Positions 16,929-60,311 of a DNA stretch of 64,000 bases are shown here, piece by piece. Location of the stretch: NCBI GenBank assembly GCA_016873195.1, contig VGXW01000001.1, positions 4,645 to 68,644 of the forward strand. Reading direction: 5' to 3'. How positions within the stretch are numbered: the stretch's first letter is position 1; every line of letters begins with the position of its first letter. Below the pieces are notes generated by a model. It did not search any database and was not told the origin of the DNA. It worked only from the letters and a program-made list of their open reading frames with translations. Source of the DNA: Planctomycetota bacterium. Its GTDB lineage: Bacteria > Planctomycetota > UBA1135 > UBA2386. Made by a program: the position numbers and the translations under genes.

Positions 16929-18731
16929 ATGCCCAAGAACCCCGCAACCCCTTCCCCGTCCCGCCTCGTCGGCGCGCTGCCGAAGATCGGCATCCGCCCC
17001 ACCATCGACGGCCGCCGCCGCGGCGTGCGCGAGTCGCTCGAGAAGCAGGTCATGGACCTCGCGCGCGCGACCGCCGCCCTGATCGAGCAGGAGGTGCGGC
17101 ACAGCAGCGGCGAACGCGTGCAGTGCGTGATCGCCGACGCCTGCATCGGCGGCGTGCGCGAGGCGGCCGAGTGCGCGGCGAAGTTCGACGCCGAGGGCGC
17201 CTCTGTGTCGCTGACCGTGACGCCGTGCTGGTGCTACGGCTCGGAGACGATGGACATGGACCCGCTGCGGCCGAAGGCGATCTTCGGCTTCAACGGCACC
17301 GAGCGCCCGGGCGCGGTCTACCTCGCCGCGGTGATGGCCGCGCACGCGCAGAAGGGTCTGCCCGCGTTCGGCATCTACGGCCGCGACGTGCAGGACGCCG
17401 GCGACGAGTCGATCCCCGCCGACGTCAAGGCGAAGATCCTGCGCTTCTGCCGCGCCGGGCTCGCCGTCGCGACGATGCGCGGCAAGAGCTACCTGTCGCT
17501 CGGCGGCACCTCGATGGGCATCGCCGGCTCGGTCGTCGATCCGTCGTTCTTCGAGTCGTGGCTCGGCATGCGCGTCGAGGCCGTCGACATGTCGGAGTTC
17601 GTGCGCCGGCTCGAGGAGGGCATCTTCGACCAGGCCGAGTACTCGCGTGCGATCGCCTGGGTCAAGGCGAACTGCCGCGAGGGCAAGGACTGGAACGCGC
17701 CTGAGCAGGTGCGCAGCCGCGCCCAGCTCGATCGCGAGTGGGAGGTCTCGGTCAAGATGGCGCTGATCGCGCGCGACCTCATGGTCGGCAACCCGGCCCT
17801 CGCGGCGAAGGGCTTCGAGGAGGAGGCGATGGGGCGCAACGCGCTGTGCGCGGGTTTCCAGGGCCAGCGCCACTGGACCGACCACTTCCCGAACGGCGAC
17901 TTCATGGAGGCGATCCTGTGCTCGTCGTTCGACTGGAACGGCATCCGCGCGCCGTTCGTGCTGGCGACCGAGAACGACAGCCTGAACGGCGCCTGCATGA
18001 TGTTCGGCAAGCTGCTGACCGGCACCGCGCAGGTGTTCTCCGACGTGCGCACCTACTGGAGCGCGGCCGCGGTCGAGCGCGTCGCCGGCCACGCGCTCGG
18101 CGGGGTCGCTGCCGGCGGGCTGCTGCACCTCAAGAACTCGGGCCCGACCGCGCTCGACGCGACGGGCCGGCAGAGCCGCGGCGGCAAGCCGGTCATGAAG
18201 CCGTTCTGGGAGATCACGCCCGCCGAGGTCGAGGACTGCCTGAAGCACACACGGTGGCATCCGTCGATCACCGAGTACTTCCGCGGCGGCGGCTGGTCGA
18301 CGAGCTTCCTGACGCCGGGCGGCATGCCGCTGACGATGTCGCGCATCAACCTCGTCAAGGGGCTGGGGCCGGCGCTGCAGATCGCCGAGGGCTGGTCCCA
18401 CAAACTGCCCGAGAAGGTGCACCGCGTGCTCGACGAGCGCACGAACGCGACCTGGCCGACGACGTGGTTCGCGCCGCGCTGCACGGGGGCTGGCGTGTGG
18501 ACCGATGCGTATTCGGTGATGAACGCGTGGGGCGCCAACCACGGCGCGATCTGCTACGGCCACGTCGGCGCCGACCTGATCACGCTGGCGGCGCTGCTGC
18601 GCATCCCGGTGTTCATGCACAACGTGCCGGAAGGCGATGTCTTCCGGCCCGGCACGTGGAACGCGTTCGGCACCGCGGATCCCGAGGGCGCCGACTTCCG
18701 AGCGTGCCAGGCGCTCGGGCCGCTCTACTGA
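16929..18731 (+). CDS. fucI: L-fucose isomerase
   Basis: 600-aa protein ([21 protein letters not shown]...TENDSLNG...[11 protein letters not shown]) with full-length resemblance to FucI. Confidence 0.9.
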
Positions 18732-18823
18732 GGTCTGGACCGCCGCAACGCGGCGACCTGCAACGGACGAAGCCACGCACGCGGGCGCCGCTGCGGCGGT
18801 TTCCATTGAGGCCTGCGCCGTCC

Positions 18824-56751: not shown

Positions 56752-57204
56752 CTACTGCCGCTTGCGGGTCTGCGCCTTGCGCGATGGTCTTGCCCTCGGG
56801 CGCTTCAGGCCCGGCAGCGGGCCGCGCGCCACGTTGTCCCGCAACCACGACGCGAACGCGGGTTCGTCCAGCGAGCCGTCCGCGAGAGCCAGCACGAACA
56901 CGGCGGCGTGCGCGGGATCGGCAACGAGCCGCATGCCGTTGCGTTCCAGGAAGACGGCCGCCGCGAGGAAGGCGGTGCGCTTGTTGCCGTCGACGAACGG
57001 GTGGTTCTCGATGATGCCAAAGGGGGAGGCAGCGGCGAGTCGGCACAGGCCCGCCTGTTCGTAGGCGAACAGGTGTTGTGGCCGGGCGAGTGCCGACGCG
57101 AGCAACCCTTCATCGCGCAGTCCGTCCGAACCGCCGTGTTGGCGCAGGCCCTCGGTATGGCATGCCAACACGGTTTGCGGCAACAGCCAGATGGGGGTCT
57201 TCAC
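56752..57204 (-). CDS. doc: Doc (death-on-curing) Fic-fold toxin
   Basis: GTG 57204 overlaps the antitoxin stop (GTGA). It has the Fic/Doc motif HPFVDGNKRTAF and a basic C-terminal tail. Confidence 0.85.
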   Translation of the reverse strand: MKTPIWLLPQTVLACHTEGLRQHGGSDGLRDEGLLASALARPQHLFAYEQAGLCRLAAASPFGIIENHPFVDGNKRTAFLAAAVFLERNGMRLVADPAHAAVFVLALADGSLDEPAFASWLRDNVARGPLPGLKRPRARPSRKAQTRKRQ

Positions 57205-57428
57205 TTCGCCAACTCGCGCAAGGTCGAGCTGTAGCGGGACAACAGCGATCGGGCCGCTCGCATCTGCGCCTCGAACTCGGCGTCCTCGGCCACGAGCTGG
57301 AAGCCCTCGCCACGTTCGTTGGGGATCAACGTGAGCGAGCTACCCTCGCGGACCTGCAAGACCTTCAGGACCTCGGCGGGCAGGATCACGCCGAGGGAGT
57401 TGCCGATCTTGCGCAGCTTGAGTTCCAT
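57201..57428 (-). CDS. AbrB/MazE/SpoVT-type antitoxin partner of Doc
   Basis: MELKLRKIGNSLGVILPAEVLKVL is a looped-hinge-helix (AbrB-like) N-terminus; 75 aa. Confidence 0.8.
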   Translation of the reverse strand: MELKLRKIGNSLGVILPAEVLKVLQVREGSSLTLIPNERGEGFQLVAEDAEFEAQMRAARSLLSRYSSTLRELAK

Positions 57429-57636: not shown

Positions 57637-57876
57637 GTGAGCAAGGACTTCCAACGGGAGCTGACGCTCGGGATCCTGGCCGCACTGCGCCGTCGGCCGC
57701 CGCTCCTCCAAGTGATGCGGGGGGCGAGGCAGGTGGGGAAGTCGACGATCGCCGAACAGGTCGGTCGGCAGTGGCGCGGGCCGGTGCGGTATGCGGTGGC
57801 GGATGCGCCGGTGCCCCCCGGGGCCGGAGTGGATCGAGTCCGAATGGCGTCTGGCGGGCTCGGCGCCCGCGGGTGA
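57637..57876 (+). pseudogene. 5' fragment of an AAA_14/DUF4143-type ATPase gene (truncated and frameshifted)
   Basis: The N-terminus ...LLQVMRGARQVGKSTIAEQVG carries the P-loop typical of this family, which is normally about 400 aa. The frame breaks near 57800, where PPGPEWIESEWRLA continues in another frame. Homology ends before 57949. Confidence 0.45.
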
Positions 57877-57948
57877 GGAGCCGTTCCAAGCGGTCGAACG
57901 CGAATGTGGCGAAGCCCAACTCGGCAATGTCGGCGCGCAGCGGTGGGG

Positions 57949-58395
57949 TCAGCCGGTCGACGGCGGCCCGCTGGGCGGCGCGTACATGCATCCCCGCTCC
58001 CGGGCCTTGCTGACCAGCTTGTCGGCTGCCTTCCTCACCGCCGACCCGCCGCCCACGTTGGCGAAGTCGGCGACCGCATGCGCATCATCCTCCGGGAGCT
58101 GGCGCGGGTCCTCCTTCCCGATCGGGTCCGCGTAGGCACGCACACCGACAGCCGAACACTCGCCAACCGACACCGACCAGGTGCCGGCCGACCTGTACTC
58201 CTTGCGCGTGTGCCGCAGGTACGCCTCCTTGGCGCTGACCAGCGAACCTCGCGACACCGATAGCTTGCCCGCGTCCTTGCGGGTCGGATGGAAGGCCTGG
58301 CTCGACACGCGCCCGTCGTTGATCCACTCCGGATGCACCTGGCGGTGCAGCAGTTCTTGCGGCTCCGTGAGCGGGGCCAGCGGTAGGGGAGCCAC
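57949..58395 (-). CDS. Hypothetical 148-aa protein (downstream gene of a two-gene cassette)
   Basis: Non-low-complexity ORF (LLHRQVHPEWINDGRVSSQAFHPTRKDAGKLSVSRGSLVSAKEAY...). Its ATG lies 3 nt after the stop of the upstream gene. I cannot assign a family. Confidence 0.6.
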   Translation of the reverse strand: MAPLPLAPLTEPQELLHRQVHPEWINDGRVSSQAFHPTRKDAGKLSVSRGSLVSAKEAYLRHTRKEYRSAGTWSVSVGECSAVGVRAYADPIGKEDPRQLPEDDAHAVADFANVGGGSAVRKAADKLVSKARERGCMYAPPSGPPSTG

Positions 58396-58398
58396 TGG

Positions 58399-59535
58399 TC
58401 AGCAACCTCCCGAGGCAAGCCTGCGCAGCACCAGGGCAACCCGCTCCGCATCGTGTGGCCGAGCGACTGTAGCGCTCAACTGCTCTTGCGTGTCGGCGGT
58501 CACGTTCGTGGCGTGGAACTCCACTGCGCCGCTCGTCAGGTCCGCGGTGAGCGCAACCTCCCAGGGGCCTAGCGTCCACTCCGCGCGGGCGCCGCCGTCC
58601 TCGGTCGGGTACAGGAACGGCAGCGGGCACTCGGCTGCTGCGACGACGCTCTCCAGGAAGGACTCGAACTCGCCGAGTCCTTGACTGTCCAAGGCCGGGG
58701 TGCTCGGTTCGAGCCAGCCGGGGGGCAGTCGGCGCAAGCGGGCGAACTGCTCGGGCAACGGGGCGGCATCCGACGAGTCCTCGTCGTTCACCGCACGGAT
58801 GTCGCGTCCTTCCTTGACGCGTTCCCGCCTGCCGCTGCGGTCGAACTCGGCCACGACCGAGATCTGGACGAGCCGACGGAGCAAGCGCACCGCCGACTCG
58901 AGGACCTCTGCCGGACACGAGGGCACGTCGACGATCACTCCGTCGGCGGTCTTGATGCTGATCCTGTTGCGGTGCAGGTCGACGCCGCCGAGTTCGCCCT
59001 CCAGGACGATCTCCTCCTCGTAGCGGCCCGTGTACTCGAGCGCGATCCGCTTGCGGACCGAGGCGTCGTACCGAGGGCCGGCAGCCTCCCGGATCTGCAG
59101 CTCGACCCACTCGTCGCTGCGCAGCTTCCGGCCGAATCGGTTGAAGTGCCGCGCCAGGGATGCGGGGAAGGCAGGGGCCGATGCTGGCAACGTACCGTGC
59201 CTGCAAAGGTCGGTGCCGGCAGCACCGACGAGGACGTTCACGAGATCGCCGGCTCGATCCATATACTCGGCCAGGTCCGGGTCAGTCTCGTCCCGTTCGA
59301 TGATCGCGCACGCGCTGCCCGGTTCCACGCCGCGCAGGAACAGCGGAAAGGCCTCGTCGAACCGGCGGGGCGCTCGCACGCGGCCCTTGTGATCCTCCAG
59401 CCAGAGGTGCCGCGAAAGGTCGACTAGCAGGTCGCGGTACACCAGCAGGTCGGGCAGCGCATCGAACGAAAGCGCGTTCGTGTCGAAGCGGCCACAGTGG
59501 AACCGCAAGGCTGCGAATCTCCTGGTGTTGACCAT
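58399..59535 (-). CDS. Hypothetical 378-aa protein (upstream gene of a two-gene cassette)
   Basis: ATG 59535 lies inside track ORF 58399..59946. The composition is balanced (MVNTRRFAALRFHCGRFDTNALSFDALPDLLVYRDLLVDLSRHLWLEDHKG...). I cannot assign a family. A TGcTAGATT extended -10-like element sits about 25 nt upstream. Confidence 0.6.
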   Translation of the reverse strand: MVNTRRFAALRFHCGRFDTNALSFDALPDLLVYRDLLVDLSRHLWLEDHKGRVRAPRRFDEAFPLFLRGVEPGSACAIIERDETDPDLAEYMDRAGDLVNVLVGAAGTDLCRHGTLPASAPAFPASLARHFNRFGRKLRSDEWVELQIREAAGPRYDASVRKRIALEYTGRYEEEIVLEGELGGVDLHRNRISIKTADGVIVDVPSCPAEVLESAVRLLRRLVQISVVAEFDRSGRRERVKEGRDIRAVNDEDSSDAAPLPEQFARLRRLPPGWLEPSTPALDSQGLGEFESFLESVVAAAECPLPFLYPTEDGGARAEWTLGPWEVALTADLTSGAVEFHATNVTADTQEQLSATVARPHDAERVALVLRRLASGGC

Positions 59536-59837
59536 CGGCTCGACTGGAGGGGCAGGGAATCTAGCACTCTCGGCGCGGCACCATGAACAACTGAAGCCGC
59601 GGAAACCTCCCAGCCGGACAGGTCGGGGCCGGCCAATCCTCGCCGCACGGGCGCCGCGATCGTCACCGACGGCCTCGAGCGCATGCGCGAATCGACCTCG
59701 CCGAGCGGCAGCATCCGGCGACGGCTTGGCATCGGCTCGTCGCGGCCGTCGGCGCCCGAGTGCGTGGTTTCGGCCGTTGTTGGTCGCCGGGTTGCGGCGG
59801 TGGAACCTCGGCTCGAGCCCGGGCTCTGCTCGGTTGC

Positions 59838-60311
59838 CTACGTCTGGTCGGCGTCTGCCGCGTTCAGGTCCAGGTCGAGGCACAGCCGCGGTGCCGGGCG
59901 GAAGCCGCTCTTCTGGAAGAACGCGACCAGCTCCACGTCGTCCCACGCCACCTCGGTCGCGAGCGAGCCGATGCCGAGCCCGCGCAGGTTCTGCTGCAGC
60001 TGCCGCAGCAGCGCCTTGCCGACGCCCACGCCGCGCTGGTTCGGATTCACGCCAATCGTGTCGAGCACCGCGACCTGCTCCATCGCGCCGAACTCGCCGT
60101 AGTAGACGCGCGCGAGCAGGAAGCCGGCGAATTGGCCGTCGACCTCGGCGGCGAGCGACACCTGGATGCCGGTGTCGGACAGCGCCTGCGCCAGCTTCGT
60201 CTTGAAGTACTCGGTGCGCTTCCGGCCCGTGATCTTGCTGTCGAGCAGGATCACGGCGTCGAGGTCGCGCGGCCGCAGGTTGCGGACCACCACGGGGTCG
60301 TTGTGCGTCAT
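59838..60311 (-). CDS. GNAT-family N-acetyltransferase
   Basis: VLDTIGVNPNQRGVGVGKALLRQL is an acetyl-CoA-binding motif (Q/RxxGxG/A); 157 aa. Confidence 0.85.
   Translation of the reverse strand: MTHNDPVVVRNLRPRDLDAVILLDSKITGRKRTEYFKTKLAQALSDTGIQVSLAAEVDGQFAGFLLARVYYGEFGAMEQVAVLDTIGVNPNQRGVGVGKALLRQLQQNLRGLGIGSLATEVAWDDVELVAFFQKSGFRPAPRLCLDLDLNAADADQT

Follow-up and report, generated by a model that had tools for sequence, protein, structure and literature searches.

A free-standing PDC-M32 candidate defence pair in a Planctomycetota contig, and a proposed modular toxin-antitoxin-like organization for the family

Results

Two adjacent genes correspond to PDC-M32

We analyzed a 64-kb stretch of DNA (hereafter the window) from a Planctomycetota bacterium (assembly GCA_016873195.1, contig VGXW01000001.1, positions 4,645 to 68,644), focusing on a two-gene cassette at ~57949-59611 of the minus strand. 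As judged from the profile matches described below, this cassette represents PDC-M32, a candidate defence system, in stand-alone form. An earlier reading of the same DNA (the original prediction) had placed here two tightly linked open reading frames (ORFs) of 378 and 148 aa, spaced by 3 nt and opposite in strand to a broken ATPase gene; our coordinates agree with each of these points. The cassette consists of the following features:

57949-58395, minus strand: gene B (PDC-M32B), GTG start, 148 aa
58399-59535, minus strand: gene A (PDC-M32A), ATG start, 378 aa plus stop codon
59536-59611, minus strand: conserved 5' leader, the probable promoter region, with the block GCTTCAGTTGTTCA...TAGATT, which travels with the cassette

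Genes A and B are co-directional, with a gap of 3 nt between the stop codon of A and the start of B, and a GGGAGG Shine-Dalgarno sequence lies ~10 nt 5' of the GTG start of gene B. The GC content of the window is ~70%, so long ORFs are common by chance. On sequence grounds, A and B are nevertheless genuine genes rather than chance high-GC ORFs, because both match the PDC-M32 profiles over their full length and have many homologues. The longest ORF containing A runs to 59946. The family alignment begins at the ATG, and this start is supported by the conservation of F7 in the family. An automatic gene call (P0041, 369 aa) instead began at codon 10, an alternative TTG start that has the Shine-Dalgarno sequence AGGAGA.

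Protein A matched the PADLOC profile PDC-M32A (PDLC04575) with E=1.9e-65, residues 5-367 aligning to profile positions 4-364 of 375, while protein B matched PDC-M32B (PDLC04579) with E=9.5e-40, residues 12-139 aligning to positions 3-121 of 123. The gene arrangement is likewise that of PDC-M32, with A followed by B, adjacent and on the same strand. In PHROGs, A corresponds to phrog_30544 (E=1e-26) and B to phrog_31579 (E=2e-19), both families of unknown function. Searches of Pfam, NCBIfam and PDB sequences, conducted with single proteins as well as whole alignments, returned no match for A or B; weak Pfam matches pooled over 40 B and 55 A homologues contained no recurring family, and in RefSeq both genes of a plasmid copy are annotated as encoding hypothetical proteins. 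Thus, the view that neither protein belongs to a recognizable family holds for Pfam and NCBIfam but not for PADLOC and PHROGs, and the module is not novel: by its sequence matches, the pair belongs to a catalogued, albeit uncharacterized, candidate family.

The PDC systems are 145 candidates, proposed because their genes lie inside BREX, DISARM or type I restriction-modification (R-M) systems (Payne, Hughes, Fineran & Jackson 2024, bioRxiv 10.1101/2024.01.29.577857). PDC-M32 appears among them as cassette CAS_00128 (FAM_01821>>FAM_00608); its count is listed as 98, and no function is assigned (bioRxiv 10.1101/2024.01.29.577857). The window copy is not embedded in BREX, DISARM or type I R-M; such embedding was the context of discovery and is not required for calling PDC-M32.

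The leader aligns to L006:7047-7122, in the closest relative of the cassette (a Planctomycetota metagenome-assembled genome, MAG), and the block is kept although the coding DNA is only 68% identical. Since DNA similarity to L006 spans window positions 59611 to 57974, the shared unit consists of the ~76-nt leader, A and B. The leader block is probably a promoter or operator. No sigma-70 consensus was scored within 59536-59611, and the block does not fit sigma-70 spacing; promoter, terminator and Rfam scans gave no notable signal.

A and B are coupled across many phyla

We scanned one genome per species with conserved B peptides taken from a narrow B alignment, which yielded 233 confirmed matches in Myxococcota, Planctomycetota, Actinomycetota, Chloroflexota, Verrucomicrobiota, Pseudomonadota, Bacteroidota, Spirochaetota and other phyla. 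We kept 80 loci, which were chosen via B and are hence biased towards B-containing loci, so that linkage was measured mainly from the B side. In 79 of these, the gene directly 5' of B, in the same orientation, was an A-family ORF; the sole exception lay at a contig edge. From the A side, a B-family gene came next in 4 of the 5 A homologues looked up, some of them only 25% identical; the fifth was the VapC-paired variant described below. Junctions in relatives overlap by a few nucleotides, and the 3-nt gap is kept in L001. The A family comprises 1495 representative clusters at 50% identity, nearly all ~375 aa in length; 40 homologues of B were collected. Among plasmids, A gave only two matches. 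Taken together, these results demonstrate that the order, strand and tight coupling of A and B are conserved across many phyla. The pair, sought in other genomes, was therefore found together almost throughout, and this pairing, along with its location among toxin-antitoxin (TA) genes, bears out the suggestion of a tightly linked toxin/immunity-like or defence module.

Atypical copies of A were observed at two loci. In L018:8755-9916 (Solirubrobacterales MAG chromosome OY969707.1), two overlapping ORFs make up A next to an intact B; the cause is either a homopolymer error of long-read sequencing or a real frameshift, after which the C-terminal part could still be translated separately. L013:2074-3541 holds a second, N-terminally shortened A-like gene (hidden Markov model (HMM) positions 90-377) that is not followed by B. 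It overlaps the end of an ORF resembling, by eye, an AAA+ ATPase, with an ORF resembling, again by eye, a PIN-type protein downstream on the other strand; this A-like gene could be an orphan or decayed copy.

Protein A is composed of two separable parts

The AlphaFold model of A has a pLDDT of 90, with a low-confidence linker at residues 252-255. Its regions are as follows:

59023-59535, minus strand: N-terminal alpha/beta region, residues 1-171 (model and alignments)
58792-59022, minus strand: OB-like beta-barrel, residues ~172-248 (model)
58402-58770, minus strand: C-terminal domain, residues 256-378, the putative B-coupled module

Within residues 1-171, the motifs GxRF (R16), RxRxPxGF (R52-F59), GS (73-74) and FGxxLxxxE (G135-E142) are conserved. 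The barrel is predicted to be five-stranded, in the order beta1-beta2-beta3-helix-beta4-beta5 of the OB topology. In Foldseek it gave local matches to OB folds (SilF/CusF, IF1, the Rim1 single-stranded DNA-binding protein and Stn1) with probabilities of 0.97-1.0, all of them at E>1e-3. The C-terminal domain carries the family motif GWxDGxGxA...PxPxLYPTPEGGxQAEW, of which the window copy has a GWLEP variant.

The N-terminal region and the OB barrel together form an N-module that is separable from the C-terminal domain, as revealed by variants of each part. The C-terminal domain occurs alone (~110-140 aa) 5' of B in ~18 of the 80 loci. In L084:2783-10372 (Burkholderiales MAG JAFLDG010000010.1), a Mod gene (MTase_III E=1e-139) is followed by a 1253-aa type III Res subunit and then by B; this Res contains a ResIII helicase and a TnsA-like nuclease region and ends in the PDC-M32A C-terminal domain (~125 residues). 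In L039:9022-10360 (Actinoplanes sp.), the partner of B is a protein with two transmembrane segments (weak CyanoTRADDas_TM match, E=3e-4) fused to the C-terminal domain, which suggests a membrane-anchored variant. Because the domain is found 5' of B alone, fused to Res or fused to a transmembrane protein, we infer that it is a B-specific coupling module.

The reciprocal arrangement was seen in proteins P0211 and P0209 (L105:5001-6343 and L106). These 310-aa proteins consist of the A N-module (HMM positions 1-254) and an unrelated ~50-aa tail ending in ...NLDHYLYGS; in place of B, a VapC PIN toxin (PDB VapC20, E=1.9e-7) comes next, and then a UvrD-like helicase. The N-module thus appears to be a unit able to pair with another toxin, and B appears to occupy a toxin slot, since VapC follows the N-module in both proteins. 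Taken together, these findings indicate that A has two separable parts, each found in other contexts.

Protein B has a compact predicted fold with conserved polar residues

The AlphaFold (AF2) model of B (pLDDT 94) is compact, with five strands and three main helices. Over 81 sequences, residues R18, Q19, S32, Q33, K40, D41, S46, E79, H106 and D110 are conserved, and R18, Q19, D41, S46 and H106 are invariant or nearly so. The conserved polar residues suggest an active site. No fold neighbour of B was found in PDB or BFVD, the best PDB match being AvrPphF ORF2, which is ADP-ribosyltransferase (ART)-like, with E=0.23 and a TM-score of 0.31.

The original prediction had raised an ART, nucleotidyltransferase or nuclease fold for the 148-aa protein, and the search for these gave no match. 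R18, S32 and E79 are conserved and were considered as an R-S-E ART triad, but this reading is poorly supported: the serine positions vary in distant members (ASDRF, SKSRF), and neither fold (AvrPphF, E=0.23) nor Pfam backs it. In a by-eye motif check, none of HEPN, PIN, PD-(D/E)xK or BECR-type RNases appeared to fit the order of conserved residues together with the secondary structure. We hold weakly, by analogy, that the target of B may be RNA or another nucleic acid, because VapC fills the same slot and PrrC sits in type I restriction loci.

About a third of the well-flanked loci lie in R-M operons

We called flanking ORFs heuristically for the 44 loci with at least 18 kb of sequence; the family counts that follow come from pooled scans rather than per-locus annotation. 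A first batch of 112 flanking ORFs included type I and type IV restriction genes, PbeA, MkoA, a BREX set (PglX, PglZ, BrxL), type IIG R-M and DrmMI; Mokosh-like and DISARM genes are among these. A second batch of 144 contained HsdM (7), HsdR (7), HsdS (4), AAA_21 (5) and integrase (2), while clustering of the flanks with Pfam searches on cluster representatives placed HsdR in 15 loci, HsdM in 14 and HsdS in 11. The usual embedded order was hsdM-A-B-hsdS-...-hsdR, on one strand and with gaps of a few bases. The defence association raised by the original prediction could thereby be scored: the pair was nested co-directionally inside an R-M operon in 14/44 loci, and in 21/44 an R-M gene was located at most 5 kb away. 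The R-M-embedded loci were enriched for partners made up of the C-terminal domain only (7/12 vs 7/32, Fisher p=0.03, uncorrected for phylogeny). These results independently recover the R-M embedding by which PDC-M32 was defined.

Other settings were also represented. The Limnohabitans plasmid copy lies in a TA cluster of RelE/ParE, VapBC and HigBA-like pairs, a setting that resembles the Doc/AbrB neighbourhood of the window copy. In three Dehalococcoidia MAG chromosomes (L047, L065 and L085), a C-terminal-domain-only partner and B lie inside a syntenic metabolic block of carboxyltransferase, aminotransferases and enolase-superfamily enzymes, with several Uma2-family putative endonuclease genes near and no R-M.

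The cassette adjoins a truncated PDC-S01-type ATPase gene

The features surrounding the cassette are:

56752-57204: Doc toxin (Fic/DOC E=2e-15)
57201-57428: AbrB/MazE-type antitoxin (E=1.5e-7)
57637-57856, plus strand: 5' remnant (pseudogene) of a PDC-S01-type AAA_14/DUF4143 P-loop ATPase, ~71 of ~395 codons left
57857-57948, no strand: junction between the stump and the 3' end of gene B, with an imperfect palindrome at 57857-57882; the breakpoint lies within
59838-60311: GNAT acetyltransferase, a neighbour of the cassette

The Doc and AbrB genes are indeed beside the pair, as had been stated, and the description of an ATPase gene that starts at 57637, shifts frame and is soon lost proved correct. 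The stump begins at 57637 and contains the P-loop GARQVGKST; a +1 frameshift from frame 1 to frame 2 falls in the C6G4 run at 57814-57823, and homology ends at 57856. The homopolymer frameshift could be an assembly error, which would leave the truncation unaffected. Pfam gave the stump a weak AAA_14 match confined to the P-loop. The PADLOC profile PDC-S01 matched it with E=2e-8 (profile positions 2-56 of 395), and the intact relative L091:1040-2227 with E=3e-155. Intact relatives (L091, L093) are 395-406 aa long, and with tblastn only their residues 3-71 match, at window positions 57649-57856; no other ATPase fragment, including the 3' half, was found by this means anywhere in the window. A complete ATPase with Walker A, Walker B and the DUF4143 region is therefore not present: residues ~1-71 remain, with Walker A only, and ~80% of the gene is gone.

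It had further been proposed that insertion of the cassette destroyed the ATPase gene. The truncation is real and adjoins the cassette, but a simple insertion is not demonstrable because the 3' part of the ATPase gene is missing, neither target-site duplications nor repeats (terminal, or flanking in direct or inverted orientation) border the cassette, its GC content shows no anomaly, and no cassette-free allele was found among the near-identical contigs. The latter are five or six contigs from other samples, 99.8-99.95% identical to the window, and those covering the cassette carry it. There is also no tRNA nearby, no terminator-like site was scored at the junction (57857-57948), and in other genomes the conserved cassette does not include the ATPase fragment. 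Replacement or deletion inside a small TA/defence islet describes the event better than a simple, gene-splitting insertion does. As the ATPase is itself a candidate defence gene, PDC-S01, the locus looks like turnover inside such an islet. PDC-S01 conferred no protection against T4, T5 or T7 in one study (bioRxiv 10.1101/2024.09.26.614923).

A ~52-nt sequence occurs twice in the window, at 59752-59802 (minus strand) and 18739-18790 (plus strand), with 88% identity. Each copy lies just 3' of a stop codon, one that of the GNAT gene and the other that of a gene ending near 18730. A 42-nt degenerate pattern derived from both copies matched those two sites only, and matched 0 of 100 shuffles. The ~52-nt sequence is no more stably folded than shuffled controls, and Rfam contains nothing that matches it; it may represent a small repeat of intergenic DNA.

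Discussion

A modular toxin-antitoxin-like model

We consider it probable, with some reserve, that the PDC-M32 pair is a modular, toxin-antitoxin-like system of the abortive-infection type. B would be the effector, an enzyme that arrests growth. The C-terminal domain of A (residues 256-378) would bind B and keep it inactive, while the N-module (residues 1-250, including the OB-like barrel) would either sense a trigger, namely phage nucleic acid or protein, or regulate the operon. Infection, or loss of A, would then free B. We infer this model mainly because the C-terminal domain tracks B, the N-module swaps its partner and VapC fills the slot of B.

Several observations weigh against this model. 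B shows no detected similarity, in sequence or in fold, to any toxin or enzyme, and Pfam and NCBIfam recognize no DNA-binding domain (HTH, RHH or AbrB) in A or in 55 homologues. The Res-fused and VapC-paired variants come from one lineage each. As for phages, tblastn with A found no match in GenBank phages, where B was not searched, and a B-pattern scan of IMG/VR confirmed no close relative of B. We found no experimental test of any PDC-M32 member in the searchable literature. Lastly, the 64-kb window contains no R-M or other defence system besides Doc/AbrB and the ATPase stump; since R-M genes are missing from it, the window copy must work alone if it is functional.

The pair might instead be a plain addiction module, a selfish TA pair that stabilizes an islet or mobile DNA and has no antiviral role. 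Doc/AbrB adjoins the window copy, a TA cluster surrounds the Limnohabitans plasmid copy, and the mix-and-match architecture is as in TA systems; moreover, the failure of the neighbouring PDC-S01 against T4, T5 and T7 in one study means that a PDC label is no proof of defence. We nonetheless regard this explanation as unlikely, given the strong and repeated embedding of the family in R-M, BREX and other defence loci, and because addiction alone does not readily account for the fusion to a restriction enzyme.

The pair could also be an accessory of R-M enzymes, a restriction guard resembling PrrC, in which the C-terminal domain of A would dock B on an R-M complex and B would fire when a phage anti-restriction protein disables the complex. 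The tightly spaced, co-directional hsdM-A-B-hsdS-...-hsdR arrangement in 14/44 loci agrees with such a guard, as do the fusion of the C-terminal domain to type III Res after Mod in L084 and the enrichment of C-terminal-domain-only partners in R-M-embedded loci (7/12 vs 7/32, p=0.03, uncorrected for phylogeny); PrrC itself is a precedent for effectors embedded in type I systems. Conversely, about two-thirds of the well-flanked loci are outside R-M operons, roughly half show no R-M gene even within 5 kb, the window has no R-M genes, and the full-length A found there has its own N-module. Furthermore, 7 of 9 Hma-embedded candidates that Payne et al. tested alone gave defence (bioRxiv 10.1101/2024.01.29.577857). 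As an account of the pair, a guard of this kind therefore strikes us as rather improbable, while the embedding and the Res fusion keep it viable for part of the family.

A non-conflict, two-subunit factor that binds or modifies nucleic acid, in which the OB-fold protein A would do the main work and B would be its cofactor, is very improbable: the OB-like barrel, the lack of a known toxin signature in A or B and the housekeeping surroundings in some genomes (e.g., L104 near nusG/secE, and L047) would suit it, but the spread across phyla is patchy, as expected of horizontally transferred genes, the pair associates with defence and TA genes, and its downstream partner is exchangeable for VapC.

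We also put forward a bolder proposal that we regard as doubtful, if conceivable. PDC-M32 would be a plug-in effector system, a second-line defence fired when restriction is evaded or inhibited, and B would found a new fold of enzymatic toxins. The C-terminal domain would serve as an adaptor linking B either to a free-standing OB-fold sensor, as in the window, or directly to restriction enzymes, the latter seen in the nesting in type I operons and the fusion to type III Res. The N-module, a promiscuous sensor/antitoxin unit, would control VapC as well.

For PDC-M32, one of 145 guilt-by-embedding candidates, the analysis supplies a testable model with three parts: a putative effector without a structural neighbour, a dedicated coupling domain, and an N-module in common with a VapC system. 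This coupling domain exists by itself as well as attached to a large OB-fold protein, a restriction enzyme or a membrane anchor. If B were confirmed as a toxin, it would represent a new toxin fold, and the family would offer a clean example of effectors wired to restriction systems. The window itself appears to capture the turnover of candidate defence genes on a small scale, with PDC-S01 replaced by PDC-M32 beside Doc/AbrB.

Comparison with known systems

The pair resembles type II TA systems such as VapBC in being bicistronic, with the partner upstream, a small putative effector downstream and a tight or overlapping junction. The C-terminal part of the partner is likewise specific for the putative toxin, and a variant of A precedes a genuine VapC. 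In contrast, A is 378 aa long and has no recognized HTH, RHH or AbrB domain, and B, a putative toxin, matches no known toxin family or fold.

PrrC/EcoprrI is an anticodon nuclease held latent by a type Ic R-M enzyme, and TgvAB is another effector embedded in type I systems (PMC11411939). Like these, about one-third of PDC-M32 loci lie in type I R-M operons, and in one lineage the B-coupling domain is joined onto a restriction subunit. PDC-M32 differs from PrrC in having no ABC-ATPase or anticodon-nuclease domain, in being a two-protein system and, in the window, in having no R-M nearby.

In that a single module, the A N-module, is joined to unrelated partners (B or VapC), PDC-M32 also resembles PanA. 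The PanA (Panacea) proteins are reportedly promiscuous modular antitoxins, of a family that we take to be DUF4065. A differs from them in having no Pfam match and no sequence relationship, and only two toxin partners have been seen. The ATPase stump, for its part, resembles PDC-S01 and other AAA_14-DUF4143 (COG1373-like) proteins over its N-terminal 71 residues, including the P-loop, and differs in being a frameshifted pseudogene.

PDC-M32 as catalogued in PADLOC was defined from embedded copies, and its source contains no domain dissection, whereas the window copy stands alone beside Doc/AbrB. In both full-length profiles, gene order, strand and adjacency, the window pair is the same as PDC-M32.

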